Shown: positions 11,861 to 40,203 of the stretch, piece by piece | Numbering within the stretch: the stretch's first letter is position 1 | Layout of the letters: each line of letters begins with the position of its first letter | NCBI GenBank assembly: GCA_040285855.1 | Contig: JAUFOQ010000005.1 | Location: 372,001 to 436,000, forward strand | Length of the DNA stretch: 64,000 nucleotides | Direction: 5' to 3' | DNA from: Eukaryota sp. GEM-RC1 | Taxonomy: Eukaryota | Program-made: the position numbers and the translations under genes | The notes under the pieces: model-generated | Databases searched by the model: none | The model's input: the letters and a program-made list of their open reading frames with translations, nothing else | Told to the model about the DNA's origin: nothing

Positions 11861-12879
11861 TGACATAGCTTACGTAATCAACACTTTATCCGGTATCCAA
11901 ATAGTAACCTTACCACAGAAATATTAAATTTTAACAATCGAAAGATACTAAGAAATATATTTTCAAAATCTATTAGTGTAATAGATTGTTTTTTTCTTTG
12001 GTAGTTCAGAAATTAGTCTGAAAGAATTTTTTGTCAATTTGAAAGAATCAAAATTACCAGTAGAATTTGTCGAAACTACAAACATTAGTTATAAAGCTAT
12101 TTTAATAATAACTGTGGAATTGATACCTTCATACACTGTGTCAAATTTACGGCTGTGTATCAACAATATGCAAAATCATTTTTCACATTATTACTATTGT
12201 CGTATGTGCTTGGAATTTAAAATTCGTCGGAAAGTATAACAAATACCGTATTTGCTATTTTTTGTTCGATTTGAAAAACGTTTTTGTGTGCTTGCTGTAT
12301 AGTCATTCGATATGTGAGCTGATAGGTATAATAATATTAATTAATACTTGAATATTTTGACTTCTATCAATTTAGAATTCTAATAAATGTCTGTAACCAG
12401 GGCGGCGAAAACAATACCGTATAAAAATAAAACGTATTCTAAAAAGAGCATTAAGGCCCTCTCTAGATCACGAATGAAGACTCTCGATTTTCCACTTCAT
12501 GGTACCAGAACCCTGTATAAAAGCGTTCTTAGATAATCAGTTCTTGTGCTCTTTATCTTTGATTGTTTTTAAGAGTAGCTACAACTAATCATATCCATGG
12601 TTCTTCTTCATCACAGTCTTACACTGGTTGTGGCTAGGTGGTTTGGCTTCTTCTGTTTTCGTTAGTTTCCCAACGTTTCAGCACTGAATAGTTTGAAAAG
12701 CCAACCGTCGCTATAACCCGATCTCTAATGCTTCTTAGGTAACAGTAATTTGGCTTTTTTTGTACTTTGTTGATTTGTATTATATGATACCATTTGGTGT
12801 ATTTTGTTGTAGTCCATGTTTGATTTAGTTGCTGCAAAAAAATTGATATTTGTATGTAATTAAATAAAAGTTACAAGTA

Positions 12880-13153
12880 TATTGACCAAAGGTTTCAAGT
12901 TTTTCGATAGTAAAGCAGTTGTACATGGAGATCTCAAGCCAGAAAAAACGTGTTGATTGTGGATGATAGAATCAGAATTGCTGATTTCGGAACTTCTAGA
13001 AACATTGAATCAACTTCAACCGTTCCAAGAACTAATGCAATGACTGTTCGTTATGCCGCTCCAGAACAATTCGACAACATGATCACTCCTCAAAGTGACA
13101 TCTACTCACTTGGAATTATCTTGTATGAATTGTTCCAAAACAAAAGGATCTAA
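12880..13153 (+). pseudogene. Protein kinase fragment, truncated where the Fanzor-bearing element begins
   Basis: VVHGDLKPE (frameshift) VLIVDDRIRIADFGTSRN...YAAPEQF...SDIYSLGIILYEL. Similarity stops at ~13150. Confidence 0.85.
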
Positions 13154-13679
13154 AATATCACAAATTTGAAAAGCGTTGTTCAATTTAAATGTGTTCAAAT
13201 ATCTTCCTTTTCAGGGAAGTAATGGATAGCGTTCAATTCTAGGTGATAATCACCCCAACCTCGACCATCGCGTAGTGAGCTCAACCGTTGAGCCCACTTA
13301 AAGAAGTTCAACGGCGAGTTGGATTGAAGTCATCTGCGTGAAACCCTTTTGCCTTTCCGGATGTAAAGCGCAAAAACACCAACGCAAAACCCCTCAGGTA
13401 CGTACGATTTACACACTTATGTCAGCAAGAGAACAGCAAGGATCTGTCTTAAAGAGAAGACCAGTACAACATATGATGAAGAAGTCATAATGTCAAGTTG
13501 TCAGTGTCAACATCAGCTATAAATAGTTGAAATCTCTTTGACCGGTATCTTTGTCATTCCCTTTTTCGACTTCCAAACACTGCAAAGTGTTTTGGGTAAT
13601 AGTAACAGGATTCAGTTACTCGCACTATCACACGTCGTTTCTCAACAGTCATTTTTATCAACAGTCATCTCAGTTTGCT

Positions 13680-13724
13680 CATGATTTAACCACGGACGGA
13701 GACATAGAGTTCAATCCAGGACCT
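13680..13724 (+). other. 2A-like (StopGo) ribosome-skipping motif
   Basis: HDLTTDGDIEFNPGP matches D(V/I)ExNPGP with the typical DLTxxGD upstream context. Confidence 0.75.
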
Positions 13725-13765
13725 CATCTTACAGATGAGCAACTGAGATCCGTTTTGCACCAAAC

Positions 13766-14365
13766 GTAGACAATATCGACACGTTAGAGCCCAACGTCTG
13801 GGTTAATGATGATGATGTCATCGACTTATACGGTGATTTTCTAACAAAAAGCAGCAGTTGTTGTAAGTACTTTCAAATCAATGACATGATTGGTGCTTTT
13901 GGTGTTTATTATTTTCAATTATTATTAAAAAAGTTCGATTACCTAATTACTTCAATGAATGATTGTGTTCCGAAGAAACGACTTATATTCATGCCAATCA
14001 ACGATGGCCTTTTCGGTAAAACTCCGACTCATTGGACACTTCTAATTTGCGACATTAAGATCAAACGACTTTTTTCAATCGATTCAACGTATACTGAAGA
14101 AGAACACTTCAAACAACTGGCGACTACAATTCGAACTTCTCGCAATGAAACAGTAGTCCAACGTTTACAGCAAGATTTGTTTAATGACGCAGATTACATG
14201 TATATGGATAAACTAGTTGTAAAGCAAGAGCAAACTAAACACGATTGTGGACCTTTTATTCTAATGTACATTCAAAAGTGTGTTGCCTTAACAGACTCAT
14301 CTATTGATTGTTCATCTATCGATTTTAAAGAAATTATAGCCAAACTCGTAACTATGATGCTCTAA
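13766..14365 (+). pseudogene. Ulp1/SENP (C48) cysteine protease domain 1
   Basis: IDTLEPNVWVNDDDVIDLYG, FMPIN...THWTLLICD...SIDS, QEQTKHDCGPFILMY (His-Asp-Gln-Cys). One frameshift from the 2A frame. Confidence 0.85.
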
Positions 14366-14367
14366 AA

Positions 14368-15534
14368 ATGCGGAAAGAAGCTTTGACTCATTTTATATCT
14401 ACTCAATCAGCAGAGAGGGCTGAACGTGCTAGAGAAGTATTAAGGCAACGGTTTCCTACAGAAACCCAACAAGTGCCATTGACTACTCCTAATCAACTTC
14501 TCAACTCAAATCGTACAAGAAAAAGAACATCTTCTCGTCAATCTAGAAAACAACCTCCAAAAAAGAAGAAATTTTCTCAAAAATCTCAAATTATACAACA
14601 TCAACATCGTGGAATTCTAACACAATCTCGTCCTAGACCTCTCATACTTAGATCACGTGATCAAATTGACTCACTGAAACCCAATGTGCTGCTTCATGAT
14701 TCTGTCATTGACTTTTTTGGTCAGTACATTGCTGAAAAGAGTAATCCATGCGAGTTCTTTGAAGTAGCCAACATTCAAGATGCAGTCAATCTTTCACAGT
14801 ATAACATAATGTTTGAACAATTTAGAGAGGTTCAATTATCAATGGGCAAATCCAGTAAAAGACACACTAAAAAGTGTAAGAAACGTTTCTTGTTTATTTC
14901 AATACATGACGGTCTCTTTGGTACAACAGCCACTCACTGGTCACTCTAAATCTGTGATATTGAAAATAAACAATACTTCTCTATTGACTCAATGTGTACA
15001 GCAGATCAACATTCTCAGTTTTCTAACACTTTATCACGTATTGACAATGTCATTTCACAATTACAACAATTCCTGTTTGATATGGCAAATTTCAGCTATA
15101 CAGCCAGAGTACCAGTTCAACAAGTCCAAACTCTTAATGACTGTGGTCTATTTATTCTAATGTATATGAATAAATTTGTCGAGTGTGAATCAACATCAAC
15201 AAGTCTTTTCGAAATTCTGTCTCAAGTCGCTAATTGTATTGTTTATAATGCATTAGAAATGAGAAAACAAATACTGTCTCAAATCGTTACTACTCACCCT
15301 GATGAATACCGACAATATGTATGTACTCATGCCCAAGGTATTTTAAATGAGTTTTATACTGATGAGATTGAATCACCTGTTAATCAACCTGTACAGTGTC
15401 AATCTGAAAGTTTAACTCCTGAAACAATGGCAGATGATAGTAATTACAAGGAAACGGTATCAAAGCTCACCTATCAAAACTTTCTGAAAAGTTTACCTGG
15501 AAATTTGTCTAATCGGAAAAGAGGCGTCTTTTGA
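14368..15534 (+). pseudogene. Ulp1/SENP (C48) protease domain 2 plus linkers
   Basis: IDSLKPNVLLHDSVIDFFG, THWSL*ICD..SIDS (in-frame TAA at 14947), QVQTLNDCGLFILMY. A clear tandem paralog of domain 1. Confidence 0.85.
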
Positions 15535-16487
15535 AGTTCAAAATGATTGAACAAGCGCTGAAAGGGGCTGGAGAATTGTTTCAAGAAAGTTATAATAACT
15601 TTAGTCGTCCAGAGTTGACAGATCTTCCAGAAATTAATTTATCAACTCCAAAAATAAATGTTGCTGCTTGTGAGAAACCTGATACAACAGAAACAACAGC
15701 AGCAACAGTTAATAGTAAGACAACAGTTGCCAAAAGGAAAACCACCAAACCAAAAGCAAGTGGAGTATCCAATGCGACAAAGAGTTTGAAACCTCCTAAG
15801 AAGCCAATGGTTGAGTTTCTCAAACATTCCCAATTACCAAAAAACTCTAATCATTGTTCCATATTGTCTTTTGATATTGAAACTAGAGAAATTGATCAAA
15901 TCCCTGCAGAGACAGTTCCAGAGGAGTTGGATGATCAAAGAAAGAACGAGAATGAATCTCTCAAAATGAAAAGTGATGCAGAAAGAGAAGTGTGGATTGA
16001 AAATCAACAAGTATTTATGATTTCTGGAGTGTTTGGTCATTTTATAAAAGATCAATTTTACTTTCAAGACAATTTTGTTGCAACTTATGAGTTGACTCAT
16101 GAATCTGATGTTGAACTGCCACCTGATTGTAGAACCCTTCGATTTTTTGAAGACGAAAAACAGTTACTAGAGTTTTTTGTCAACTATTTGAATGATAAAA
16201 CACCTTCTATGTTAACTGGATTTAACATCACTGACTTCGATAATGTTGTTTTAGACAAAAGGATTGATACACTTGGAGTAGACTTTCCAGAACCAATGCT
16301 AGATGACACAACTAAATCTCATATATCACCTTTATGGCAGAAAGTTTGTTCTGAATGGGCTGGTAGAATTGTCTGTGATTCATACGTTTATGCTAAGCAA
16401 TTTATTGTTTCAAAATGTTCAAAATCTTTAAGAGCATTAAGTTGGTTTTTATTAAACGAATCTAAAGGACGTCTTTCAAAAGACTGA
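15531..16487 (+). pseudogene. Family-B DNA polymerase 3'-5' exonuclease-like domain (DEDD)
   Basis: ExoI ILSFDIET (~15870), FEDEKQLLEFF, ExoII LTGFNITDFD (~16218), GRIVCDSY...SLRALSWFLLNESK. ExoIII and the polymerase domain are not seen. Confidence 0.85.
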
Positions 16488-16489
16488 TC

Positions 16490-17550
16490 AAGAAGAAAAA
16501 ATGTCAAAAAAAAGAACAGACGGTGTTTCGTTGGAGACTTAGACAAGTTAAAAATGTCTTTCTTGAAGGCAACAGAAATGACACTCCAAAAACCACTGCA
16601 GAAATAAAACAATTTATTCAAAGATGCAGAAATTCTTCAAGACGACAGTAATAGAAGTTTGAACATTGCAGGTAAAATTAAACTTCTGTGGGCAACTAAC
16701 GACTATGTTGAACAATTGTTTAAAGATAAATATTTTATTGATGTTCTCTTTCCACCATCATTTGATATTCAAAATGCTAATGGTGTTTATAAAAAGAAAG
16801 TCGTTAAATCTCTACTAAAAATCAGTTCGTGAACATCCTCAATCCTTTATTAAAACTGCTTTTCAAATAAATTACTATCTTGAAAGTGAAGGAGCAAGTG
16901 CTTACAATGTAATTGGGATTGTTCGTCACGTCACACCAGGTTTCTTTGAAATAGACACACAAGGTCTTTGGGGAATATTACGTTCCACTTTGTCAACACA
17001 ACAAGTGAATGTCAAGAAGAAAATGTCTGTTTGGAATACAAAGAATGAAATTGCACACATGACTCCTGCTGAACAAAATCAATTCTGGTCACATTTTTTC
17101 AACTTTAATCGTGCATTTATAAAGAAAGGTTATAAGTTTAACAATACCATTAAAACTGATGGTTTCTCTGCTTGTGTTGAACTGACTAGAGAGGACTGTG
17201 TTGGAATGTCATTTAAACCAGACAGTGCAAAGTTCTCCAGTAAAGAAGAATATGTTCAAGACTATGATGTTGACGAGTTTTCATTGAAAACAAAAGTGTT
17301 TATTGATCCTGGAAATTCAGATTTACTCTATTTTTGTTCAGAGAAAGTAAATAAAACCCGAGAAAGAAGAGACAAAGAATACGAGTGGCCAAGATTGACA
17401 GAGACAGAATGGTCCATATGGTCAAGGGTTCATCAAAAGTTTAGAAGGGGAAAGAAAAAAGAATTCATTCTCCAAGATGGAAAAACAGTTGAACAAGAAG
17501 AGTCAACATTGTCGAAAGAAAATTCGAAGTCCACTCTTTATGACATATTG
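16490..17550 (+). pseudogene. Fanzor1 (TnpB-like RuvC nuclease), partial
   Basis: VREHPQSFIKTAFQINYYLESEG...TPGFFEIDT, FWSHFF...YKFNNTIKTDGFSACV, EEYV, RuvC-I KVFIDPGNSDLLY (~17302), GKTVEQEESTLSKENSK. RuvC-II/III not seen. Confidence 0.8.
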
Positions 17551-17986
17551 GTAAATAATAAATGGAGTTTTTTGTTTTTCATTAGCAGGAATAAGTCAGG
17601 CCAAATAACTACTGAAGATGTTTCAGATCTTCCTCTAAATGTCCTCGCCATCCAACTAAACCTCTAGAACATTTCTAGACCAAGAAGAAGTTATTACAAG
17701 AAGAATCCAAAATTATGGACAAATGTCAAATAACCAGAGTGTTTGAAAAGATAATATCATTCTAGAGTCTATTGATCCTGATTCTATCATTAAAGGTTTC
17801 CCTTCAAATGATGACGTGGATGAGTGGTTCAAAAGTTTGCTTTTAGTGGAGGGTTTTCTAGCTTGACCCCCTTGGTTTTCTGAGATTAAGGTGATAACAT
17901 AACGTCAAATGTAAAACGGATTGCATATTATATATAAATAAAAAGTCTTACATTTTGGGAATTAGTATGTGTTAATCTTAGATTTT

Positions 17987-19645
17987 AAAAAAGAAAAAAC
18001 AATAGTAAAAAAGATTCTGAGTAGTGAAAATTCCTTCCTCCACCGAGTAGAACCATTTAAACCAGTAATTAAAACAAAGAAGTGTTGAAAGAAGATGAGT
18101 AAACAACTCTCAATTAAGACTGATAATGAATAAATGAAGAAGTTGATAGGTAACTATTAAATCAGTAGCATTAACTTAAGTAGACTCAAAACTAATACTT
18201 AACAATGTTATTAGTTTAGTAAAAAGGAAATTTAGGATCCAATAATCTCCATTAATCAAGTTCTTTTGGACTCATTCAGAATAAAAAGAACAATGAACAT
18301 GGTCTTAATAAAAGCTTTTTTCGGAAAGTATATCAAAAAACACGTGTTCTATTACTTTCATTGAGAATTATACCAAGAAAGTACAACAATCAGTCAATTC
18401 AAAAGACTGTAGATTTAGGTAGTGTGAATGCTGGAAAGTAAGTAACACTGTCATTAGTGATAAATAAGGTACCTTAATAGATAGTAACTCATGTTAGACA
18501 TTCGAATCAGAGTTTTCTTGAGATTGAAGTGATGACCTAAATCAGTGGTGAGTACTAGTGTTTGACAAGTAGAGAGTCACAAAGGTCAGGAGACGAGAGA
18601 ACTGGCAAGACATTACTTTGAGAGGGAGAAAGAAGGAAGGAATTGAAGGAGTGTGAAGGACGAGGAGAAGCCACAGAGCTTGGAGGTGGAGATTCACCAG
18701 TTTTAGTTAAAGGAATTGAGAGAAACTTCAGACTGGTAAACACGTTCTTATGTAGTTGTTGGATTCAGATCAAACGATACTTTTGCATCTCTGTAGGAGT
18801 TTGATTGGTCACAGCGACGTGAAGATGGAACATCGAAAGGACTTTGAGAAGAAGTAGATCAAGAAAAGAAAGAGTTGTATCTCCAATTGAATCGGATTGA
18901 GCAGTAGAATCGTGGCGCGCCACTAAGAGCGTCCCATTTTGATCAGGAGAAGGTTACAGGTATGACATTGTGAGGAGAGGACATGAACTTGTCTCTTTGA
19001 TTCAACTCTCTCAAACTTCACATTTATGTTCTTTGCTCTACAATGTTGCTCTACTCGTCTACTCTCTTCTTCACTTCTCTATTAGTTCACAACGGAGGAT
19101 CAATTATCTCATTTACAGACCAATTCTTCTTCGTCAATTGAGTGTTGTGTACGTGACACGTTACCAGAAGTAATCCTTGACACGTGTTAACACGGTGTTA
19201 GGAAACATGTTTGTTGTTATCATACTCTAGTTGAGTCTGTTCTCTAACTTTTTCTTGATTAAACATCTATACTTGAGACTATTTCTCGATTCAACTACCT
19301 ACATGTCTATTTCTCTTGGATAACCTGATCATTCTTTGAGTTTCATGTTTGTTACTTTACTTTGGATTCCTGGTTGATCACGTCATCAATTCAATCACTT
19401 CATACTGATTGGTTTCTTTCAAGTTCAATGATCTCTTGGTCTCACACTTTTTTAAATTGTTAGGACCTCTAACTTAGGTATCATTTATTGTATTTCCATG
19501 TATACTGCCATTTTGTTTTGGTCCACGAACAATTCTTAAGTTTACGTCTTCATTCTAGTTCAATTGCTTCCATTATTTGATTTGAAACTCAAGAAGATTG
19601 TTCATGATAGATATTCCACTACTTTGTTGGAAGTAATTTCCAGCA
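17987..19645 (-). repeat. Block A partial inverted copy
   Basis: Reverse complement of ~7476..8990 and 47880..49370 (e.g. CACGTGTTAACACGGTGTTAGGAAAC). Confidence 0.85.
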
Positions 19646-20979
19646 CTGTATCATGAACCTTAGTGATGATATCTGGCTGACATTTCCCCTTGGCTCAGCT
19701 ATACTTAGTCACTCATAGGTTGAAATCAGTCTTTTGCACTCTCCAGTATCGTTGTTAAAGCTGTTTGATAACCAGCAATTTGAACCCAAAAAGGATATCA
19801 GAGTCTAATCATTTACAGATTCGGAATCACGTCTCGGATGGCAAATGAAAGTCAATTTGTCTGGTTTGATTGGTGAATGATTCTGGAACTGTCTTAAAAC
19901 CAGGCCAAGTTGCCAATGCTTTCAACTTCTTCCAATAAGAATTCGATGAGACAAGATTTGATCATCTTCATTTTTGTCAAAGTAGTCAAACAAATTTCAT
20001 GTTCAAATATCAATTTCCCCAATTGTTCCACAATGCGCGTATCTCTAACTATGATCTTGTTTTTTTTAGAGTTCGGAATTTCAAAATTAACTGTGAGATT
20101 GTTGAAAGATCTTAAATTTTTTTGTTTCGTACAATTCTTCGAATTCTTGTCATCCAAGAGTAGATAGTAGTAATATTCGGATGCATCGCTTGTATTGACT
20201 CATTTAAATTGACCTGCATTCTTTCAAAAACTGTGAGCCACTCAAGTAGCGTCAACTACAGAATAGATCCCAAGATCTATTCGGCAGATTTTCTTCTATG
20301 AAAATATGTACAGTTTAGAAACAGTACATCCTAATTTAATGTATAAATAACTAATCTACTAGTATTTTGCAACAATTTATGTGACATGTGAAGGTAACTC
20401 GTCGCCTTTTCTACAACAGTTTCCTCTGTTATGGAAGCAAGATTAGCAGCTTTAATGTTTAATGTTTAAAGCTCTCAAAGACATGTTTTTTTAACAAAGT
20501 ATCTAACTCACGTACCCGAGGTTTGAAGACTGCAATTATTCAGTGTTGTCAAAGTAAGAGCTCTGGATTTTACCCAATGTAATGTAACTTGTTCTAGACA
20601 GGACCGTTTTTCTATTATCTCGTCATTCAAGGATTCTTCAAGGTCAGTACTCAAAGGCTTAAGTCCTACACTAGAATTTCCCTTCGAAAGGAAGAAGGGT
20701 ATGACCTCAGCCTGCCAGTCTTCCAATGGTGATCAAGATTCCGGTACTGAGAAAGAACAACAGTTTTGCTCTTTGTTTCTATTACAGTGAGGATATTTTG
20801 TTTATGGCCGTTTGTGAATTGCGTTTGATTACGTTCCAATTGGGGAGGTAACATGAGAATGAATCTTAACTTCTACAAACTGGAAGATGAGGTGATGAAT
20901 AATATTCTTGTTGGAAACGTTTCAGGCAACTCGATAATAGGAATTAGCATCATTCATCCATGGGGCAATCAGTCAGTCA

Positions 20980-21463
20980 TAGGGTTGGTGGACCACTGTT
21001 AATTCTCGCCTTGTACTTCTGGGCCAGCCGGCTTGATCATTGTAATTGCTGATTTTATCCATTTTTTGCACAAACAATAAATACTTAACTACACAACAGT
21101 TGCTTATAGAAGCTTACCAAAAGCAATCACTTTACAATACATTATTGATTTGGATAAAAACTGGTGTGATGTCGTACAATAGCCTACATACGAAATAGTT
21201 ATTAATAATGGAAGATAATAGTAGGACAATACAAACAGTGATAAAAAAGACAACGTATTTGTAATAAATTGTACTACTGTTAAAAATCAGATTGATTTAT
21301 AATCACATCAGTGATCAATCTCCATCATGGTGATTGTAATAACTGATACATATGATTGGAGATATATATTGAATCTGACAGTTTTGTTGTCAAAATATGA
21401 GTTAATCGTAAGCCAGCACAACATAGGACTAGCCGGCTTAAATCGGGCCGGTCGCCAACCCTA
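20980..21463. mobile_element. hAT-type MITE (484 bp)
   Basis: TIRs TAGGGTTGGTGGACC / GGTCGCCAACCCTA and an 8-bp TSD GTCAGTCA / GTTAGTCA (1 mismatch). Confidence 0.8.
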
Positions 21464-21773
21464 GTTAGTCACGTCATCAAGTTTGGTCATAATTCATGAC
21501 CAGACTTTTCATGGTGAGTTGCTGCGTGTTAATAAAACACTTTTCTGTTTGAATTTTTGAAGCCTTTCCGGTGGATGGACTTACTCTGTTGAATTGCAAT
21601 ATTTACCGTTGGATTCAATCTGCTAAAGATTTGGTATCATCGATGTAGAATCTTTGTTATCTGCTCACTTAAAGGAGACTCCTTTTATAAATATTTCGTC
21701 TCTACCATGTACTGTGTGTAAACTGCCACATTAATTGACTGAGAAGTTTGAACTCTTGTACTTTAATAATAAT

Positions 21774-22004
21774 CATACCTAGGAAATACACGAAAACATT
21801 TCCAAATACAGATACAAATACAGAATACAGAGACATCATTGGTCATAAGATTCGGCTGTTGACGTAGCATTGTACTTCGGATTGTTGTTATACAAGCTTG
21901 TATTTCATAATCACAGTGGAACAGATATTTTTTCACATGTATTCCAAATTTGGTTCCAAAAATTTGCAGTTAATTGTTGTTACTGAAGATCAACCAAGAT
22001 CACC

Positions 22005-22036
<32 letters not shown>

Positions 22037-23465
22037 GGAAAGAATCAAAGAACCTGAAGCATCTACTGCTAACTGTTGGAGTCAGTTGTGCAGCATCTGA
22101 GAGCTCAATACCAGAGCCTCTAAATCTTGGAAAAAACTCAGCAAAAAGCTGAAACGTAATAATTACAGAGTTTCGAAAAGAATAGAGAAGGTTTGAATCA
22201 TATCTTTCAAATTCTGACATAGTATGTATGTTAATATATCATTGCAAATAAACTTCCTAGTTTTGAATCAAATTGAAGAAGAAAAAGTTTTACGTGTACG
22301 GAAATATAAAGCTATTTTCTCCTCCGTGAATAATTAGATCAACTACACCAATCGGTTTAAGTAGTCTGGACCAGACTAATTCTTAAAAAGGTTTTTAGAC
22401 CCCAAAAATAACAAATATAGTCTGAAGCATACTATTTCTAGTCCAGACTCATTCTTTATCCAGACTATTTAAACCGATTGGTGTAGAGTAATAATATATC
22501 TTTACAGTTGACAATCATTGTTATGACTTTCTGAAGTTATTATCTTAGCTACTGTACATTACTGTGAGTTACTGTGTTACTAGATCTCTTACATCTTTGT
22601 GATTGTGTTTTCTTTGGAATGATAATTGAATACGAAGCATTAGAAAGAGCAGAATCTAAACACCTTCTGAAATAATTTCAGGGATCACGACTTCACGAAT
22701 ATGCTTCTTCGATTGGGTACGTGGACTGCAATTCTATTAAACTATTCATCTCCTACTTGTAAAATACAAATACTGTAGTTTTTTGCACTTTTGGATTTTC
22801 TGTATGTTTGTATTTTGTGAATTTGTTTACACTGAATTAATACTGTACTTGCTGCATTTTTATGGATAAAACGGTACCAGAACAATCTTTGGATGCAAAT
22901 GCACTGTTCATTTTTATCTCTATCTACGTGTTGGACGTATTCTTTAAAATGCACATATTGGATGATCAAAGATCTCGTGGTCATGTAATTCTTCTCGAGA
23001 ACGAAGTTGTTTTTGATGATGAAAATGGTGTTACCATATACAACTGCGATAAATTGGAAGACGAATTGCAAGTTCTTGTTCTTGATGAATATCACGTTGT
23101 CACACACTTGTCTAATAATGAAGAATATCCCAATCTTCTTGACGTTTTTGGGGGAATCTCAACCTGTAGAATGTTGAGGTTGAAACAATGTGTTGGAAAG
23201 GCCTTCTTTTCTATTCCGAATAGAGGGCAAACTAAATAATTGATATATTGGTATTTGTTAGGGTATTTTTGATGTTTTGTTATGTTTTGTATCACCCATC
23301 TAGTTATCGTCATTGTCACTTTTAAATGCAAACAGTTCTCACCATGACTTTTACGAATGTTTTCTAAGGTCGACGTATGTTCTATTTTTCTGTATTAAAT
23401 GTAATTTCTGTATTTTTTGTATTTTCTGTAGTTTTTTCAGCGAGTGGCTGTATTTTCCAAGTATG
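21774..23465. mobile_element. Possible deleted hAT derivative
   Basis: Imperfect inverted ends CATACCTAGGAAATAC / GTATTTTCCAAGTATG with AATACA subterminal repeats, and an HNHSGTDIF hAT-like remnant at ~21905. No TSD. Confidence 0.35.
22346..22483. mobile_element. Tc1/mariner-type MITE (138 bp)
   Basis: 25-bp TIR CACCAATCGGTTTAAGTAGTCTGGA (1 mismatch) flanked by TA on both sides. Confidence 0.85.
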
Positions 23466-23499
23466 ATTCAACTTGCTCTTGTGGAGCTAATAGTGTTTT

Positions 23500-24190
23500 T
23501 CGTCATTTAATTAATGGTCGTTATTTTATTCATCTACGATTAGTTATTCATGATGGTGTAGTTTTTGATATATCGGAATACGTTTTTAATTCTCTCAATT
23601 AGTTGAGAAATTGTACAAGTTTGGTGTTAAGGTTAATGTTGAAAAACGTAATCTTTTACTCGAAGGGGATGAAGTCGTTCGGATTCGGTTCCAGTATTGT
23701 TTGTTTGTTTTTGCAAATTCATAATATGGAAGGAAAGTTACCTTTTATGGGTTCTGAATAAAGTTTCTTCCCTCTTTATGAGGACAAAGCGGTTGGAAGA
23801 TTTGATAGTGACGGGTGTTGTTTTAATAATATCTAATTATAGTTTTTTCGTTATATTACATCTATAAATTTTTCGTTTCTTTAAACAAACATACATTTTG
23901 GTTGTAAAATTGATTTGTATTCCAAAAATGTTGCTAATTTCAATCAAAATGTATATTTGTTCCATTTGCTATTTCTAGTTGTGGTAATATTGGTGAAATA
24001 ACTTCTACGTTTTTAACTGATTTTGAATCTGTGTGTAAGTCTCAAAATATGAGATTTAACTTATCAATTTGGCATAACCTTTTGATGTTTTCTTGTTCCG
24101 TTCGATGCTTAAGTTTTTTAAATCAATTTTGACAAAGTTGTATAAGAACTGTGGTACTGTTTACCAGGAATTTTCGGTGTCTAGTGTTTC
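23500..24190 (+). mobile_element. Degenerate RLE-type (CRE-like) non-LTR retrotransposon fragment
   Basis: KFGVKVNVEK (RT) and FVPFAISSCGNIGEITSTFLTDFESVCKSQNMRFNLSIW align with the C-terminus of the 24195..25480 element. Confidence 0.6.
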
Positions 24191-24194
24191 ATAG

Positions 24195-25480
24195 CTTTTA
24201 TTATGAAAAAGAACGGATTTATGTGCGGAGAAAAACGCACAACAAGAAAACAACATATAAATTCAGAAAATTAAAACAAATTATCAAACGAACTACCTAA
24301 TTCCGAAAAGTAGTTGCCTCCAAACAACTTGGACAAAATGGAATTAATATATCTATACATAGACCTGAACATCGAAAAAGTAAATTTGCTCTTCCAGTAC
24401 GGTCTGTTAAACTACTTGCCAAATTCTGAACACAAATTTTCAAATAAATTTAAAAACTCCTTGGTCGAAGAACCGAAATTACCGTACAAAGTAACTACAA
24501 AAGGCTGAAAGACGATATTCTTGTGTCTTCGTGGATTCAATGCAGCAACTTGATGTACGTACTTAGACACTTTAGCGTTCTCAGCGTCTTTCAGCGGATC
24601 ATTTGAAGTATTCAAAATATTGGCAATAACTGAAGCTTTGCAAGGATCAACGGTCGTAAAATCAACAACAATTTCTTGGCATGACAACCAATGGCCAATA
24701 AAATCACCACGTTTCTGAGTAGAATCAGGGTGATCTGAAAGATGAGAAAGTAACGGTTCAACTTTGCCATGGAAACCATTCGCCTTAAACATTTCCAAAC
24801 ATGTATCTCGAAGACTGTTGTGCAACATAGAACGGCAATATATGTATTTTGAACAATTGACCAAATGATGAAAGCTTTTTGTTTGTTTTTACAGATACAC
24901 ATGCTGTTCTGTAACACACCAAATGGCCAAAAACATAAACGAAGTCTCATATTAACAAACCATTCATGATCTTTTGGATTAAAAAGAAATCCCCCTGACA
25001 ATAGAGTAATGAAAGTAGATGCTGAGTCACTACTCATGTCTTGTAAAAATGCACAGAAAGCAGAACTTTTACCTTTAGGCAAGCTAATGCAGTTAGTATA
25101 GTCCAAGCTCTCATAGAAAGATACAAATTTGTTCTGCAATTTTTTAACACCAAGAGGAAGGGAAAAAAGCGTACGTTGAGGTGTTTCAGTCACAGATGCA
25201 GGAAACAAGGATTCCCAAACATCAGGGTTCATACCATCTACAAGATTTTGAAGTGCTATAAGTCAGTGACAAGGCCAATATCGAATGAAATCTTCATTAG
25301 ACCAAAGTAAAGGATAACGTAACTCAAATTCATAGCAGATTCTTCAAGCATCCTACAAAGGCGTTTTCACGTATATAACGAGCTCCGGAAAACCCAATTC
25401 CACCAAATCTAACAGCAGCAAATGAATGACGATGAATGGAAAGCTTTTTCGACTCTACCAGCTCTGACAAAAACTCTGTT
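24195..25480 (-). mobile_element. 5'-truncated RLE-type (CRE-like) non-LTR retrotransposon
   Basis: RT thumb AVRFGGIGF, MRLRLCFW, CCHC finger (CICKN...HLVNC), MLHNSLRD, PD-(D/E)xK endonuclease KRGD...VVDFTTVDP...AENAKVSKY...FQPFVVTLYGNFG. Frameshifted. Confidence 0.85.
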
Positions 25481-25564
25481 CTCAAAGACTAATTATGATG
25501 TGTAATTTAGTAACCACCATCAAAGCACTGTTTTTTGGCTGGTGGAAATAAATCAAAAAGAGAA

Positions 25565-25658
25565 TGCAGCGACATGGAATCGAACCATGGTTATTGCGAG
25601 GATTTGTCCGTGTCAAAGAGTGTTCAGTCAATGCTTGCCGTATTATGCATGAAGCTGC
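25565..25658 (-). ncRNA. tRNA-like element (imperfect) with B-box and T-run
   Basis: Perfect T-arm CATGG-TTCGATT-CCATG followed by TCGCTGCA, which can pair with GCAGC at 25658. D-arm-like TGCATAATACGGCAAGCA, and TTTTT 6 nt downstream. Anticodon arm irregular. Confidence 0.45.
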
Positions 25659-25682
25659 TTCTCCAGAAGGCGCTCCTCGTTT

Positions 25683-25761
25683 CATCTGGTTTTAGCAACG
25701 GTTTCCCGTAGTTGTCCCGGAGTTTCTCATAAGTTCTTCCCGTGTTACTCACCCGTTCGTC
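25683..25761 (-). other. Bacterial 16S rRNA-like fragment (approx. E. coli 105-180, helices 7/8)
   Basis: GACGAACGGGTGAGTAACACG...AACTT...ACTCCGGGACAACTACGGGAAACCGTTGCTAAAACCAGAT versus the 16S pattern GGCGAACGGGTGAGTAACACGT...AACCT...GGGAYAAC...GGAAAC...GCTAATACCGGAT. Confidence 0.65.
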
Positions 25762-26049
25762 GGTTTCTCCCAGTTGCGTTCCGTGATGTAATTGGCTGGT
25801 TTGTGATCCATACCGTCCAATTGTACAAAGCGCTTGTGAACCAGGATGGCGTTCAAATGATTACTGCTTCCGGAACACCTCCAGTGCCTAAGGCTGCTTA
25901 CTCTTGTGATGGATCAGATCTCGTTGTGGATGTCATTTCAGTAATGAAGAACGTGTTAAGCTTGCTAACACAACCTTTAACAAATGTAGGAATGTCGGAT
26001 GATCTAGCTGATGCCATAACTTACTCTAATTTCTTTTCCACTTGTATTT

Positions 26050-27430
26050 CCGTTTCTTCTTTCGATGAATAATCGGATCTGGACATGTGATTCCATGATT
26101 GTGAGTGTTTTCACCAAATGTTCTCCCTTAGCACACTTAGAGCAACACTTACTGGTTCGGTACTCATCCACAAGAGAAATCTTGAACCCTGCTTTTCTAA
26201 ATAGCTTCCTCATTGATTTTCCTTTAATTGTTGGAAGAAAACCTTTAGAGCCAAAAGCAGAGTCATCCCAATCGCCAAGAACTTTGTTTGGTTCACAAAG
26301 ATTTTCTCGAAACGGATGATCATTTGGTCTTCTCCCCGTTTCTTGTTGGAGTACAACTGAAGTTGTCTCTTTCTAAACCAAGTTGAGCTGTATAAATTGC
26401 AAGTTCTCAAGTTGAATAATTCTTTTTGATAGATGTACTCACAAAACTCTTCACGAACACAAGATTGTTTTTGTCCTTGATTGACAGCAGCAGAGAAGAG
26501 ATTAGTTGTATCTTTACCAGTTACATCGAGCCAGGTTGTCAATTCAAGCTTTCGTTGTTCTGTTTTACGGTATTTCTTGAATTTGGATTCGTAGTTACGT
26601 TCCCCATGAGTATAAACAAACTTTTTAAACTTGTCTGTTTGTTCTCATTTTAACATCTTCAGATACTTGAACTTCTGGTTTGGGTGTTCTTTTGTTTCTT
26701 CTGTTTTAATGATACGATTGGGTGGCTTTCGTGGTCTTGTGGTTGCATCTGTTTTAATTCCTTCTTTTCTAATTCCTCAGTAGATTTTTCTGTGCCAGCA
26801 ACAATTGGGGCATACTTATTTGGATCAATACCCACCAGAGTTCTATCTTTTAGATTTAATTCCTCAAGATCAGTGACTGTTAAATCATCCAGTTACTTTT
26901 CTTCAGTTTGCAATTGAATTGTAGAGTATTGTTTTCCTACTAAATCGTTTCTTTGTAAAACAAGTGAAACCGAAACACCATCAGTTTGAAATTCACTTTG
27001 AATTGAGTTTGTAAAGGAGTAAATTTGTCTTAGTACATTTGAAGCATCCAGCATCTCTGTTAAGTAGGGAATCCCAAATTTCTGTTCCATTTTGAATAGA
27101 ATGGGTTCAATAAAATTTCTTTGTTTGTTATGTTACAATTTTCTCCCCAGAAATTTTGGATTCTAAATCTTGCACTTCAGCCATGGCTTTGTTTGAAAAA
27201 ATTACCAAATACAACTTTAGTGTCAACTCTAAAATGCTGTGGAATGACAGTCTCTGTTAAAGGAAGACAATTTGGAATACTGCAAGGATTTCCTCTTTCA
27301 TCAGTTTCAGCTCTTCCAAGCCTTGTTGTAAAAATTGCAGGAGACAACAACTTCACTGGATGTACCTTTTGAGAATAGAATAAGTTTTTATCTTTGACAA
27401 ATAGTGAAGTAAAATGATCTTTCAGATATA
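26050..27430 (-). pseudogene. Fanzor1 (TnpB-like RuvC nuclease), frameshifted
   Basis: CLPLTETVIPQHFRVDT, EFQTDGVSVSLVLQRNDLVGK, RuvC-I LVGIDPN (26821), FRKRQLQLYSNKKRGEDQM, VLGDW...PTIKGKSMRKLFRKAGFKISLVDEYRTSKCCSKC. RuvC-III not seen. Confidence 0.88.
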
Positions 27431-27449
27431 TTTTAAAATTCCAAAAGTC

Positions 27450-28140
27450 TACTAAGTGATGACATAATTCCACATCATTAATACAATATCAAGCAAGAGA
27501 CGTTCGGTCTTCATCTGAACCATTCCACAAACGACAAATTTCCTTCAACTTGGCTAAAGTACTTTGATTTCTCAACATTTCACAACCTTGACTCTTGTAC
27601 TTAGTTTGAAGACGAACTTTCTCATCTTTAGATAAAATATACAATTTTTGAACTTGTGAACCTTCAAACAGATATGAAACAACATTTTCCGATGATATAC
27701 CTCCGGGAAATGTAAAAGTAGAACGTAAAAGATGATACAAATTCAGAGACAAAATAGAAGCAAGGTTTGACTTTTCAGCCCATCTTTGAAAAAACATGGA
27801 CAACAAACAGAACCTTCACCCAGTTTAATTAAGAAATTGATGTTCACATCAAGCAGTTGACGAATAATAAACGGTAAATCAAATGAATTACAATTGTAAC
27901 CACAAATGGGTTTTGGCTTTTCCAATTTCAGTAGATCAATAAATTTCACCAACATTTCCTTTTCATTTTCAAAAGCACATCTTCAACATTCAGAATATCA
28001 GTAAGAACTGATTTACAAGTATACAAGAAATTTCTTGACTCTTGTAAATGATGTTCAACAATATTTACAAGTTGAACTGCAATCTGGAAAATTGAATCAT
28101 TTTCAAAGTCGGGTTTCAAATTATCTGGTTTTTCAGAAAG
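27450..28140 (-). pseudogene. Family-B DNA polymerase 3'-5' exonuclease-like domain
   Basis: PDFENDSIFQIAV, FENEKEMLVKFIDLL, ExoII ICGYNCNSFDLPFII (~27880), ExoIII LA*YCINDVEL (27474-27488). Confidence 0.85.
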
Positions 28141-28629
28141 ATTGGTTTGTCTTCTGGTTCGAGGTCATCATCTTGAGAAACATTGAGGCAATTGACGGCT
28201 GGGACTCTTTCAGGATCAAAAGGAGCTCCACTTCTTTGTAATAACACATCCAGCAAGAGAAAACAATGGTTCAGAAGGTGTACTTGTGGTTTGAATAGAG
28301 AATATCTGTGTTTATATTATAGTCAAATTATAATTGTAACATCCTGAAACGATTTTGCATTTAGGACTATTTATGTGTTTAGAGAAATCAGTGGTGTTAT
28401 ACAGAGGTCAGACACAATATTCCATATGGATACACTATTTCACTAGAACAAAATTCGTCGACAAAATTTCCGCGAAAACTCAAAAATAATCCGTCGACTC
28501 GACGACGACGACGACGACGACGGAGAAATGAAATACGAACGTCGACGATTCGTTGATGATTGTTGGTAGCGAATTCGTCATGTCTAGAAAATTGTTTGTT
28601 CAAATATTTCTCATAAGATGAAAAGCAAT

Positions 28630-29976
28630 GCTCTCTTCTTCTGTTCTTTATCCCCTCTTCACTCACGCTCTTACTGAAGACACGAAACAACCAAAAAGGA
28701 CTTGCATTTTCAGCAAAGCTTGTTGATTTTGACTCATCTTCACTTCTTGAAACGTCTCTTAAAGTCTTCTTCTGAAGTGGATTATGACGATCCTGGTCGT
28801 CATTTCCTTAATTTGAAGAAACAATTGCACACATTCTTTAAGAAACTTGGCTATGTATCTCGTCGCTTCTTTGAAACTGCTCGTCTAACTGTCAAGGTGT
28901 ATATCCAGACATACACGTTTCATTTAGTTCCTGACGTTCTTCCTCAACTACATGTATTTGCTTCCTTCTTTGGAGCAGAGGTACAGTCTGTTTTCTTACA
29001 CGTGACCCAGAACTTTAGAGTTCAAGAACTTCTCCATTACTCTAATATAATATCAGGTTTGTTTTTGACATTAGAAAACTCTACTGACTTGGAGTTCCTC
29101 AATAACTCTTCTTCGTTCTTTCCACGTCTTAAACAGCTTCATGTGCGTGTTGATTCTTCTATTTCTTTGTTGTTAATTGAATTGTTAAAAGTCAATACTA
29201 CGGTCACAAGTATTGACCTGGAAGAAACTTTGCTTGGTCCAGCAGGTGCTAGAGCTTTAGCGGATATGTTGAAAATTAATGATACAATGGAAAGTGTAAA
29301 TGTAAGCTACAACTCTATTGGAGATGAAGGTGCAACAGCATTATCAGAAGCGTTGAAAATTAATACTACATTATCAATAATCAATTTGAATTTCAATTCC
29401 ATTGGAGATGAAGGTGCTACTGAATTGGCAGAGGCATTAACAGTTAATACTACGGTGAAAAAAATTGATTTGAGTGGGAATTATTTTGGGGTTGAGGGTG
29501 CTAGAGCTTTAGCGGATATGTTGAAAATTAATGCTACAGTTGAGAGTGTAAATTTGAGTTACAACTCCCTTGAAGATGATGGTGCTGGAGCATTGGTAGA
29601 TGCATTAACTGTTAACACTACAGTTACACGTGTTATTCTGTGGGATATATCTATTACAGACGAAAGTGCAACCGCATTTGCAATTTTGTTAAAACTTAAT
29701 ATTTCAGTAACAAGTATTGATTTGAGTGGAAACTCTATTGGAACTGAAGGAGCTATATCGTTAGCAGAAGCGTTACATGTAAATAATACTGTTGTGAGTG
29801 TGAATTTAAGTGACAACTTTATTGATGACGCAGGTGCTATCGCTTTGGCAAATGCTTTGAAAGTTAATACTACAGTGACTATTGATTTGACTGGAAATCC
29901 TATTACAGATGAATGTGCTATATCACTGGCAGATGTGTTAAACGTAAATGGCACAGTTAAAATATCAACAAGTTGA
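28630..29976 (+). CDS. NLRC3/RI-like LRR protein (5' end frameshifted or disrupted)
   Basis: Family N-domain HFQQSLLILTHLHFLKRL...FFPRLKQLHV plus ~9 28-aa repeats LKVNTTxxxIxLxxNSIGxEGAxALA. Confidence 0.8.
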
Positions 29977-31273
29977 TCTTAATTCGATTTTTATGCTTAA
30001 TATACCCTAAGTTTACGTTCATTTTATCGTGATGAAAACTACTTAATTAGATGTTTCTATAACTCGATTAAGTGATTTTAGGTGATTCGATGTTATCAAT
30101 TGTTACACAGTCTTTTCAGGTTTTTTGATTCCTACCATTTCAAGTAAATGCGTAAAAATATTACAGTTGTTGTTCAGCCACAACAAAGCTGACAATACGT
30201 AGAGTCCAGCTGATCATCCTCATAGATGTATTTATTTACTAATACATCGAAGTTGTTGGAAAAACTAATCTGGATACAGACATAACATTTGAAAACACGT
30301 TTATTGAACAAACTTAGATTCATATTATTGCATTATTGATCACACTTACAAACCCTTTTGTTTAGAGAAATACAAAAACAGGAATCAGCTACATACAACC
30401 AGATAGGGCCAAGGTCTGGTTTAAAGCACTCCCTTAATGTAGAGTGTCTACAAAGGAGGCGCTGCAAAGGAGAAGTGATTGCAAGCAGTGGAGGAAGATG
30501 TCCTGGAACTGTGAGAAGCATGTAGGTGTCAGTTTGAAAGAAGCGTTGAACAGCTGAAAAGCCACAGTCATAGAGGCGTTGACTCACAAAGCCCGCAGTC
30601 ACACGGAATAAGGACAAACTGTGTACCAAGAAAGAAAAGAGTAGGAGGAGGGGATTCAGTGAAGTCTGCGTAAAAGGCGGTTACCATCTAGACGAATTCT
30701 TCCGGCGACGCGATGAAGTATAGATTGATCGAAATCAAGACCGAGGGATAAGCGTTGAGGTGTCATAGCGTCAGGATAGCAGAAGGGAAGAACATTCAGA
30801 GAGAGGAAACATCACTCCGGAATCCGGTATATCACCATGAGAAAGACGACTCTTTTTAAGTGGAGGATCAGTGAAAGTGATGTGGATTCAATCAAGGAAA
30901 CAACATCTGTTTTGAGAGATTCAACCGATCACAGATGCATGACTACAGATTAATCAAGAACTAATAGGTGGTACCACAACATCAGATAGAGATTGTGCAA
31001 GTTCTTTGCTGTTCCTCTTGAATTGACTTGAAAAGACTACCACTAGTAATAGGTCAACACAATCCCATTGTCACACTGATCGTGGAAGATTACTGAACGC
31101 AAAAAGAATATTGTTTCGAGGCTTTTTAAACAACAGAATATGGACATAGGAGACACAGAAGAAGACGGATCATGATAATCTTACCACACCATTGGTTACT
31201 CACTCAAGTTTCTTCAATTCAATTAAGAAGATTGGACCTCAGAAGGAATCAAAGAAATCTAGAATCACCCTCA

Positions 31274-33073: not shown

Positions 33074-33314
33074 TTTTGTAATGTTAAGACATTGTCTAAA
33101 TTAGTTTTTATTGTTTCATTTTATTAGTTAATTATTCTTTTTACTGTGGTGGGTATTGTGTTCAACACTCACTGAATAAGTTTGAACAAGAAATGGAATC
33201 ACCGTAGTTTGTTTGTGTAATAAAATTGTGTTATGTAACAGTGTAACATTAAAACTGTTTATTTCAAAAAAAATATCGAGGAGAATTATTCTTACTGTAA
33301 ACAAATCTATCGAC

Positions 33315-34900
33315 ATGTTCACCAACCTCTCAATTGGTGTTTCCCACCCAAAACTCTACCCCAAAAATACCATGATTGACCTAATACATGAACATGGCGG
33401 TGTACATGGCGTACATGGCGACCATTTACATCTGCTAATCTGCTCTTCCTCTGAATTGTCCAGAGAAACTAAGTTATACCACCAAGCTCTTGCTCAAGAT
33501 GTTCCCATTGTGTCTGAAGATTGGTTTGAAGCTGCCTTCAGGAGAATTACCCTTGGTCAATCAATTTCCAACTCAACTATGTTCTTCTCAACGTCACTGT
33601 CTTTCCCCTGTACTAACTCTCACTTCACTCGCTGAAAAGACTCTTAATCGCGAGCAGCTTCACTTTGTACTCTCTGAATCTGATTTGGTGTATAAAACCT
33701 TGCAAGCCAATACTCAACTTCTTGTTTGCTCTGGAAACAGAAGCCACCAAAACACCTCCCCCTCCCTATACTCTCCACTGCCCATTCTCGTCAAATACCC
33801 ATTGTAACCACTGCATGGATCACAGAGTCCTTTGCTTCCAAGAAACTCATTGACTACTCACGTCATCTACTCACTCCCTTGTATCCCACTTACAATCATG
33901 AGGCCAAACGATCACGTCTCTCTCCTAATGTTGAACCTCTAGATCATCCTGGCTTTCTCTTCAACATTCTTCTAGGTTCTCACTTCAAGTTTCCCATACT
34001 TAAACCACGACTTCTTTTGGCTCTTCATTGGCTCTTAGGAACAGAAGAACAATCAAAAATGATTTGGGACCGAAACAAATCAATGTTTGGGGCTTTTGTT
34101 GATCGTTCTCCAACTGGAATTTACGAACGTAAAAACTTTTCCAAAAAATTCATCAGTAAGACTTGCTCAACAAAGAGGGCTTTGACAGACTTTAATCTTT
34201 CTGTATTAGAGTTGAAGCCTCTGCATCACTCTTATCACGGCTATAATTTGATTGAAGTGAAGGAACTTTCCTTTTTTAAACATGGTCTTGATGACTATAG
34301 AAGAGTTAGGGACAGAAGAGAGAAGTTTCTGTTCAGAAAGCAAGAAATTCGTGATGAAAGAGTCTCATTTATTCACCATTATTTACGGTCTACTTTGAAT
34401 TTCAATGACTTTTTGTTTACATCAAAGATCATTAATTCTAAATATTGCTCTGATTTTCTAGCGAATGGTAAAGGTAAATCTAATATGAAATCACAATTAA
34501 ACAAGTTTGTTTTTATATATAACCTAACCAATCACTGCTCAGACTCTGATAGAGAACTTGTTATTCAACGTCTTAAAGATACTGAAGAAGTGACGGAAGA
34601 GATGGTTTCACAAGAAGTTCGCACAGTTATTTGGAATCGAAAATATGGTAATAGAGCTGACTTTTTCTTCACAATTCAAACACAAAAAAGTGGGTATGTT
34701 GAGGGATTTATATCTGACCTTGATATGGAAAACTTCATGAAAAAGTTTAAAGAAGAAAGAAAAACTAACTGAAGATCTTATTGAAAGTCTCACTGTAAAT
34801 TGCTCAAAAACTGTAAAGTCGATGGTTCTTAATCGACTTCAAAAAATTGAAATAGTTACAGAAGAATTAATTGCAGAGGAGATTCGTCGAGCTGGAACTT
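33315..34900 (+). pseudogene. BRCT/XPA-C-like family copy 2 (frameshifted)
   Basis: High identity to 244..2060, with frameshifts near 33538, 33733-33765 and 34765. Confidence 0.8.
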
Positions 34901-39960: not shown

Positions 39961-40203
39961 ATCAACTTGAATCAAGATGGAATGAATTTGAACCAGTGTA
40001 AATGCGCGCTTTTTCCACAAACGCACATACAATTGCGCCGTTTATTTACTCTTACAAATACAAACTATCATCAATATTAACAAATGAGATACAAATACCT
40101 CTACATCATCTCAAATTCATGTCTCTTAGCAAAGAGACTATTCAAAATCGAATCAAAATACCTAAACAAAGCTTTTAAAAGGGAAAACGACAACCTTCCA
40201 CTC

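Follow-up and report, generated by a model that had tools for sequence, protein, structure and literature searches.

Fanzor1 is an RNA-guided nuclease that has been reported in Mariner, Helitron, IS4, Sola2, MuDR, and unclassified elements, and the sections of the same survey that deal with DEDDh nucleases place these only in P and piggyBac elements (Bao and Jurka, 2013; PMC3627910). DEDD exonucleases are likewise carried by KolobokD elements and Terminons, and are described in the relevant sections without fusion to a guided nuclease (PMC9587614, PMC6431247). Here, we describe two decayed elements, F1 (plus strand) and F2 (minus strand), from Eukaryota sp. GEM-RC1, both lying in a stretch of 64,000 nucleotides (contig JAUFOQ010000005.1, positions 372,001 to 436,000; hereafter the window), in which a 3'-5' exonuclease of the family-B DNA polymerase (PolB) type precedes Fanzor1 sequence. 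Both are dead copies, each from a multicopy element family of its own. In these families, a PolB proofreading-type exonuclease is fused to the N-terminus of Fanzor1, and the intact relatives of F1 encode the whole as a single protein.

Intact relatives encode an exonuclease fused to Fanzor1

To find relatives, the Fanzor piece of F1 was used as query, and this gave five clusters among 1086 candidates, all from Eukaryota sp. GEM-RC1 or TZLM3-RCL, which are Skoliomonas strains, i.e., free-living metamonads of soda lakes (PMC11316075). Our profile search of 1.84 billion representatives produced 1808 matches at E<=0.001, and the results drawn from it rest on the best 150 of these. Four further proteins that span the exonuclease-Fanzor joint (P0026, P0032, P0039, and P0071) were among these 150, with GEM-RC1, TZLM3-RCL, and TZLM1-RC as sources; TZLM1-RC we take to be a third skoliomonad. 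All relatives are automatic gene models.

A genuine fusion is supported by the geometry of the joint. Of 26 proteins, drawn from three genomes, 24 have the ExoIII aspartate exactly seven residues ahead of position 1 of the Fanzor profile, while P0197 has a spacing of 11 and P0001 an internal gap. Since the subfamilies sharing this fixed joint are only about 30% identical, the constant spacing argues for a fusion rather than an annotation artefact. Moreover, the exonuclease moiety carries the ExoI DxE, ExoII NxxxFD, and ExoIII YxxxD motifs of a PolB-type DEDDy exonuclease, and all five DEDDy residues are among the 19 invariant of 205 ungapped columns in an alignment of six exonuclease lineages that are 20-50% identical. 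Pol delta is the best sequence match of the exonuclease domains, with E=3e-6 (P0004) and E=2e-9 (P0197). In the phmmer matches of P0004, the Pol delta exonuclease covers residues 91-238, and SpuFz1 takes over from residue 239 (E=5e-24).

An AlphaFold2 model based on a 116-row alignment (pLDDT 89.4, pTM 0.85) showed continuous high confidence across the joint. Residues 1-245 of the model superpose on PolB exonuclease domains with a Z of about 18 and a root-mean-square deviation (rmsd) of 2.4-3.2 A, while residues 248-940 superpose on residues 18-631 of SpuFz1 (Z 27.8, rmsd 3.5 A, 568 aligned), thereby displaying the WED-REC-RuvC-TNB fold with an enlarged REC.

The original prediction had named, as support for the coupling, several loci with the exonuclease and a complete RuvC triad in one open reading frame (ORF), and such proteins do exist. 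ExoI-III and RuvC I-III stand together in one chain in 10 of the 68 family proteins (a set that includes six placed by similarity only: P0034, P0047, P0049, P0062, P0082, and P0087), with a triad that in the F1 clade is D-E-N and not D-E-D. Among the further family proteins, one has the ExoI glutamate changed to lysine, and two are missing ExoI alone. Both P0002 (1846 residues) and P0007 (1905 residues) hold a 2A-like motif, two Ulp1 domains, a basic linker, the exonuclease, and Fanzor1 in a single chain, and P0004 and P0180 are single-ORF relatives as well. None of the 68 proteins matches the pattern of PolB palm motif A or C, the relatives scanned with Pfam contain no PF00136 match, and the Pfam scans of 10, 21, and 2 relatives revealed no transposase, reverse transcriptase, or polymerase domain. 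In turn, an exonuclease domain aligned in none of the 129 other Fanzor proteins among the best 150 of 1808 (local exonuclease profile, best E=0.018).

Family proteins number 40 on 11 contigs in TZLM3-RCL and 17 on 6 contigs in TZLM1-RC, with contigs told apart by their lengths and some of the proteins being pieces of one copy. Identity is 94-98.5% inside subfamilies and 30-53% between them, from which we deduce an old diversification with recent spread, and these dispersed near-identical copies mark the F1 family as encoded by a mobile element. While the exonuclease-Fanzor unit is constant, Ulp1 domains number none (P0071 and P0197), one, or two, and are placed after the 2A-like motif, except in P0183, where they come before it. 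The 2A-like motif GD(V/I)ExNPGP is exact in the window's F1 and five relatives, and appears as a variant in five more (E to H in four, one of which also has P to A, and D to N in P0197). By itself, a 2A motif is not sufficient for ribosome skipping, as an upstream tract is also needed, and E to H variants have very low activity (PMC3708506).

As separate observations, P0183 (TZLM1-RC) has its 2A-like motif behind a Ulp1 fragment, which implies longer upstream polyprotein modules that might hide a mobilising enzyme, and two TZLM3-RCL gene models, P0009 (DEAH helicase) and P0029 (DM10 domain), join host-type domains to 5'-incomplete element copies, which suggests insertion in or next to host genes. 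Pattern scans of viral contigs and metagenome contigs found no related locus, and tblastn of P0004 against plasmids gave no match. The ESM Atlas, in a search that did not reach small clusters, returned only ordinary Fanzor1 clusters for P0004 (score 0.76, a lead only) and stand-alone PolB-exonuclease clusters for the P0197 exonuclease.

The two decayed copies in the window

The window is AT-rich eukaryotic DNA with many repeats, leucine-rich repeat (LRR) genes, and transposon fragments. A 104-member profile of unrelated Fanzor1 proteins matches exactly seven fragments in it (E<=0.5), two in F1 (best E=1.6e-39) and five in F2 (best E=1.1e-17). In the Pfam searches, PF03104 was assigned to the F1 exonuclease ORF at 15513-16487 (E=3e-14, 53 bits against a cut-off of 23) and to the F2 piece at 27746-27982 (E=5e-10, 39.5 bits). 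F1 and F2 are both pseudogenes with stops and frameshifts. The parts of F1 are as follows.

13151..17544, plus strand: F1 element, a decayed 2A-Ulp1-exonuclease-Fanzor1 (D-E-N) copy; both limits approximate
13698..13724, plus strand: 2A-like (StopGo) motif GD(V/I)ExNPGP, in the same place in P0002, P0007, and P0021
13739..14365, plus strand: Ulp1/C48 protease domain 1, with His-Asp-Gln-Cys motifs kept (PF02902 E=8e-8, above cut-off); frameshifted relative to the 2A motif
14674..15264, plus strand: Ulp1/C48 protease domain 2 (PF02902 E=4e-4, 20.6 bits against a cut-off of 20.7; tblastn with P0014); stop at 14947-14949, start read off the translation
15513..15863, plus strand: basic low-complexity linker, homologous to the linker of intact relatives (tblastn)
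15864..16475, plus strand: PolB-type 3'-5' exonuclease, with ExoI (FDIET, 15870-15884) and ExoII (16218-16241) intact and ExoIII deleted
16476..16479, plus strand: internal-deletion joint with about 200 codons gone (ExoIII and the Fanzor N-terminal WED/REC), by comparison with P0026
16480..17544, plus strand: Fanzor1 fragment (REC end, WED, RuvC-I IDPG at 17302-17313), frameshifted and 3'-truncated, 80% identical to P0001 over 248 residues

The 2A-like motif at 13698-13724, whose NPGP recurs in no other place in a six-frame reading of the window, and the two Ulp1 domains upstream of the exonuclease had been left out of the original prediction. In the six-frame translation, the exonuclease motifs of F1 are followed by EIDT at 16948 and TDG at 17152, ahead of the RuvC-I IDPG. 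The deletion is delimited by P0026, residues 1-57 of which map to 16296-16475, and residues 269-306 to 16514-16627. The element ends at 17544, where homology to P0001 stops, without RuvC-II, zinc finger, or RuvC-III. Its 5' limit was set where a protein kinase fragment (12880-13150, plus strand; Pkinase E=5e-14) breaks at 13150; the remainder of this kinase was not found 3' of F1, the sequence past 17545 being unlike a kinase by eye. Some 440 bp beyond the truncated end lies one of three copies, 87-91% identical, of an unclassified 1.43-kb repeat (7567-8983, 17988-19419, and 47965-49367).

For F2, the corresponding parts are these.

26029..28270, minus strand: F2 element, a decayed copy of the 2A-exonuclease-Fanzor1 (D-E-D) family; truncated at both ends, with no 2A remaining
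27441..28256, minus strand: PolB-type exonuclease, with a decayed ExoI at about 28245-28256, ExoII at 27878-27901, and ExoIII (YCIND) at 27474-27488; stop at 27489-27491 and at least two frameshifts
27440..27441, minus strand: in-frame internal-deletion joint, with the Fanzor N-terminal WED/REC removed; the P0197 match stops at 27441 and the P0196 match starts at 27440
26065..27440, minus strand: Fanzor1 fragment with RuvC-I IDPN (26818-26829), RuvC-II Glu (26151-26168), and the first CxxC; RuvC-III lost

Further motifs in this Fanzor1 fragment are RVDT at 27219, TDG at 26977, and GDWD at 26265, and the window reads DEYRTSKCC at the RuvC-II position, i.e., with the glutamate directly ahead of the zinc finger. 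The loss at the joint amounts to roughly the first 215-230 Fanzor positions.

The original prediction had put an exonuclease and, immediately after it on the same strand, Fanzor1 motifs at both loci. While the domains and their order are borne out by PF03104 and the Fanzor1 profile, the tightness is exaggerated because of the internal deletions at both loci. The same profiles provide the check that had been proposed, with PF03104 above its cut-off and Fanzor1 matched in both copies, although the match of F2 to PF07282 (E=0.002) is below cut-off. We found no PolB palm motif and no transposase (DDE or Y1) in either locus, in agreement with what had been claimed. Moreover, the view that a shared architecture is more plausible than chance juxtaposition holds, with the same 2A-exonuclease-Fanzor head seen in both families. 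The case that had been named as refuting, in which intact relatives show a full PolB gene and an independent Fanzor and the loci here are deletion products, does not hold; deletion products they are, but their parents are fusion genes.

With respect to the ends of the truncated window copies, repeat searches at F1 and F2 gave only matches at the level of chance, and thus neither a terminal inverted repeat nor a target duplication. In the region 12800-31200, seven Rfam matches were obtained at E<=5, all far under gathering scores. A GC-richer 5' stretch at 13140-13440 did not fold more stably than shuffled sequence (z=-1.3), and we therefore claim no ribozyme or internal ribosome entry site there.

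A second exonuclease-Fanzor1 family

By sequence comparison, F2 is a Fanzor1 lineage different from F1 with what reads as the same 2A-exonuclease-Fanzor head, and is known only through partial relatives. Its exonuclease is 71-83% identical to residues 103-340 of P0197, while in the RuvC part the identity is 80-83% to P0025 of GEM-RC1 and 24% to P0004. When the joint region was read through its single stop, P0196 and P0197 were found among 259 candidates. P0197 presents, in this order, a 2A-like motif (the D to N variant), the exonuclease (PF03104 E=2e-18), and a Fanzor1 start (E=2e-4 at Z=1000 for profile positions 13-65). For F2, insertion of a Fanzor into a normal PolB gene had been considered, and was dropped once P0197 showed this start.

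A quick tree was built from 125 RuvC regions, leaving out about 25 shorter rows without the motifs, and in it the 13 rows of the F1 clade formed one group (SH-aLRT 100), with P0025 on a long branch outside. Even so, a joining of the F1 clade and P0025 was not rejected by the approximately unbiased test with 36 rows (p=0.50). Just downstream of F2 is a decayed ORF (24412-25650, minus strand) with no Pfam match, whose motifs we presume to be like the restriction-like endonuclease end of CRE/R2-type retrotransposons lacking long terminal repeats (non-LTR).

Active site of the Fanzor1 moiety

The Fanzor1 motif defined in 2013, D-X(125-275)-[TS][TS]xx-C4 zinc finger (Bao and Jurka, 2013; PMC3627910), is well represented in P0004, where D678, T863-S864, and C867/C870/C902/C907 are invariant in the family alignment. 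In this protein, the RuvC-II glutamate is relocated to E860, just before C867, and aligns with that of SpuFz1. Both the RuvC-I aspartate and the RuvC-II glutamate are retained in the F1 clade. More conspicuously, the third RuvC residue is asparagine in 35 of the 36 F1-clade proteins that reach this position (P0176 has aspartate), while in the 129 other Fanzors it is aspartate in 111, asparagine in 3, and a gap in 15. Thus, the terminal motif is RN in the F1 clade as against the RD of the 2013 description; RD is found in P0025 of the F2 family, where the triad is D-E-D, and the motif has been lost from both window copies.

GtFz1 carries the same RuvC asparagine and is active, and in SpuFz1 the D606N change raises cleavage above the wild-type level (Xu et al., 2024; PMC11423790), for which reason the F1-clade nuclease is, by analogy, likely active. 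An earlier candidate reading, in which asparagine in RuvC-III signified a dead nuclease, was dropped on these same data.

Proposed function and alternative explanations

We propose that the fused protein cuts DNA under RNA guidance and then trims the 3' strand released by the cut, so that copying of the element back into this site would be favoured, a reading that we hold at about even chances. As a first step, the Fanzor moiety would, quite probably, be active with a guide taken from the 3' end of the element, as for other Fanzor1s. As a second, and with fair probability, the tethered exonuclease would act on the Fanzor cut. A displaced single strand with a 3'-OH is the type of substrate that PolB exonuclease domains prefer. 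Such a strand, on the side of the target-adjacent motif (TAM), follows from the cut positions of SpuFz1, which are after base 16-17 from the TAM on the non-target strand and after base 20-21 on the target strand (PMC10432273), and a tethered PolB exonuclease could remove this tail in cis. The third step is more tentative: the tail at an empty site may be right-flank sequence, mismatched to the left end of the element in the donor chromatid, such that its removal would give a clean primer for gene conversion and spoil simple re-ligation. In yeast, invading 3' ends are shortened by Pol delta proofreading (PMC9477423). Fanzor guides derive from the flank past the 3' end of the element, and a bacterial precedent is TnpB, which cuts empty sites with guides of this type, the element then being restored by gene conversion (PMC13565253). 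The 2A-like motif would free the nuclease from the upstream peptide, and the Ulp1 domains would be optional cargo.

Several points weigh against this proposal. Among the F2-family proteins examined, none spans exonuclease to RuvC-III in one chain, and active-site losses occur in two relatives (ExoI Glu to Lys in P0018 and RuvC-II Glu to Lys in P0024). The 5' resection on which homologous recombination depends is not provided by a 3' exonuclease, and the trimming could be carried out by Pol delta of the host itself. Restorative homing has been shown for bacterial TnpB and IscB, not for Fanzor, in the parts of the source concerned with it (PMC13565253), and excessive trimming would shift repair toward deletions, as seen for TREX2-Cas9 (PMC13370227). 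Finally, the F1 clade has glycine at the position of SpuFz1 N385, where N385A is inactive (PMC13434818), yet 64 of 129 ordinary Fanzors have glycine there too.

Alternatively, the exonuclease may widen the Fanzor break so that deletions remove the target, be it an empty site, a competing element, or a virus. This is the main rival, if an unlikely one. It agrees equally well with the fixed joint and the intact active sites, and with the engineered TREX2-SpCas9, deletions become more frequent and larger (PMC13370227). However, a guide derived from the flank targets the host's own empty site, where deletions are of little gain to the element, no viral or array-like source of guides was seen, and the recent dispersed copies point to selfish spread.

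It is also rather unlikely that the exonuclease serves transposition intermediates or 3' maturation of the guide RNA, with its fusion to Fanzor being merely that of a polyprotein of accessory modules. DEDD exonucleases do accompany KolobokD, P, piggyBac, and Terminon elements, and the ORF also holds variable Ulp1 modules and a 2A-like motif. Nevertheless, the Ulp1 domains vary in number (0, 1, or 2) and position (before or after the 2A) when the exonuclease-Fanzor joint is invariant to the residue, there is no 2A motif between exonuclease and Fanzor, and the exonuclease is of the PolB type, a class that prefers DNA.

As for mobility, the enzyme responsible is most likely a transposase acting in trans. 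An open 362-residue Tc1/mariner-type transposase with a helix-turn-helix is found in the window at 5315-6403 (minus strand; DDE_3 E=7e-20), and is a candidate helper since Mariner elements are known Fanzor carriers. We consider it quite unlikely that the families instead represent a transposase-free class, for which a 2A-released exonuclease-Fanzor would cut a guide-selected site and trim it, host repair would copy the element in, and the head would have been joined to Fanzor1 twice independently.

A further explanation, highly improbable in our judgement, is that the D-E-N Fanzor has little or no nuclease activity and serves as an RNA-guided binder, delivering the exonuclease and the SUMO protease to chosen sites for editing or chromatin purposes. 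The asparagine is fixed across the F1 clade, and nuclease-dead TnpB repressors exist (PMC13565253), but GtFz1 is active with asparagine, and SpuFz1 becomes more active with it (PMC11423790), the RuvC-I aspartate and RuvC-II glutamate are kept, and the F2 family, with the same head, has the canonical D-E-D. Lastly, the prospect of an artefact or accident, i.e., a Fanzor inserted in a PolB gene with deletions or the two joined by gene-prediction software, is next to nil and largely refuted, because even though both window joints are deletion joints and some of the automatic gene models are chimeric (P0009 with a helicase and P0029 with DM10), the spacing and conserved joint sequence recur across three genomes (24 of 26 proteins), the palm motif is in 0 of 68 proteins, a second family has its own in-frame joint, and the high-confidence model is continuous over the joint.

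Other features of the window

Elsewhere in the window, we noticed a MITE-like (miniature inverted-repeat transposable element) pair of 28-bp inverted repeats (22343-22486; 96% complementary and 88 bp apart), as well as a weak hAT dimerisation-domain fragment (6718-7140, plus strand; E=0.046). An LRR protein family is expanded, with 84-bp repeat units (28678-29976, 31130-33073, 55333-57949, and about 63200-63800), and there are three BRCT-family paralogues (235-1632, 33186-34772, and 43314-45058). Also present are an 867-residue protein in which BTB domains are joined to an ALK/LTK glycine-rich domain (37438-40041, minus strand) and a frameshifted Rce1-like CAAX protease (60817-61723, minus strand; E=2.5e-11).

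Comparison with known systems

Previously solved Fanzor1 structures include SpuFz1 (PDB ID: 8GKH and 9CEU-9CEZ), PpFz1 (PDB ID: 9CF0-9CF3), and GtFz1 (PDB ID: 9CER), with which the skoliomonad proteins have the whole WED-REC-RuvC-zinc finger body in common, and in GtFz1 the D-E-N triad is as in the F1 clade. What sets the skoliomonad proteins apart from known Fanzor1 is the 240-residue N-terminal PolB exonuclease, the 2A-like motif, and the optional Ulp1. Fanzor1 is known to be carried by the DDE transposon superfamilies Mariner, MuDR, Sola2, IS4, and Harbinger, and by Helitron2. In the skoliomonad ORFs scanned, no transposase domain was found. SPu-1 and other Fanzor-only elements (Bao and Jurka, 2013; PMC3627910) are likewise multicopy without a transposase of their own.

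The proofreading domains of family-B polymerases (Pol delta, epsilon, and alpha, Pol II, and herpes UL30) share the DEDDy motifs and the fold. In contrast to these polymerases, the fusion has no N-terminal, palm, fingers, or thumb domain, and contains a 40-55-residue insertion after ExoI. Mobile elements carrying a 3' exonuclease are also seen in KolobokD, P, and piggyBac (DEDDh), and in Terminons (DEDDy), but there the exonuclease is TREX/ERI1-like or encoded by its own ORF next to a transposase or reverse transcriptase, whereas here the exonuclease is PolB-derived and fused to an RNA-guided nuclease. The same GD(V/I)ExNPGP is found near the N-terminus of a mobile-element ORF in APE-type non-LTR retrotransposons (L1Tc, Ingi, CR1, and L2; PMC3708506). 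Unlike in those, no reverse transcriptase or APE follows the 2A, the Pfam content of full-length relatives being Ulp1, exonuclease, and Fanzor only. Recoding of the 2A-like type is thus placed in an element that lacks reverse transcriptase, at the level of the motif.

The word 'exonuclease' is absent from the main text of PMC10711439, PMC10530073, PMC10432273, PMC13565253, and PMC10288648, as is 'Fanzor' from the skoliomonad genome paper (PMC11316075) and a 2026 survey of 2A sequences (10.64898/2026.09.24.754024). Our literature searches, whose scope did not take in supplements, Repbase, and subscription journals, found no natural exonuclease-Fanzor fusion described. The exonuclease-Fanzor1 fusion is apparently an undescribed Fanzor1 architecture, and the pairing of an exonuclease with an RNA-guided nuclease, natural in this case, appears to have been known previously only from engineered editors.

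A conserved fused 3' exonuclease offers a direct handle on the role of Fanzors for their elements in eukaryotes, as comparison of exonuclease-dead and wild-type proteins would separate restoring the element from destroying the target. With intact coding sequences already in public genomes, this is directly testable, and the D-E-N active site has been reported as the better cutter in Fanzor1. An exonuclease tethered to an RNA-guided nuclease is likewise found in the engineered TREX2-SpCas9, T5exo-Cas12f, and T5E-SpuFz1. The skoliomonad protein, of about 940 residues, is thus a natural counterpart of the fusions that engineers build to alter repair outcomes, but, unlike these, it is rigidly joined and conserved over deep divergence.

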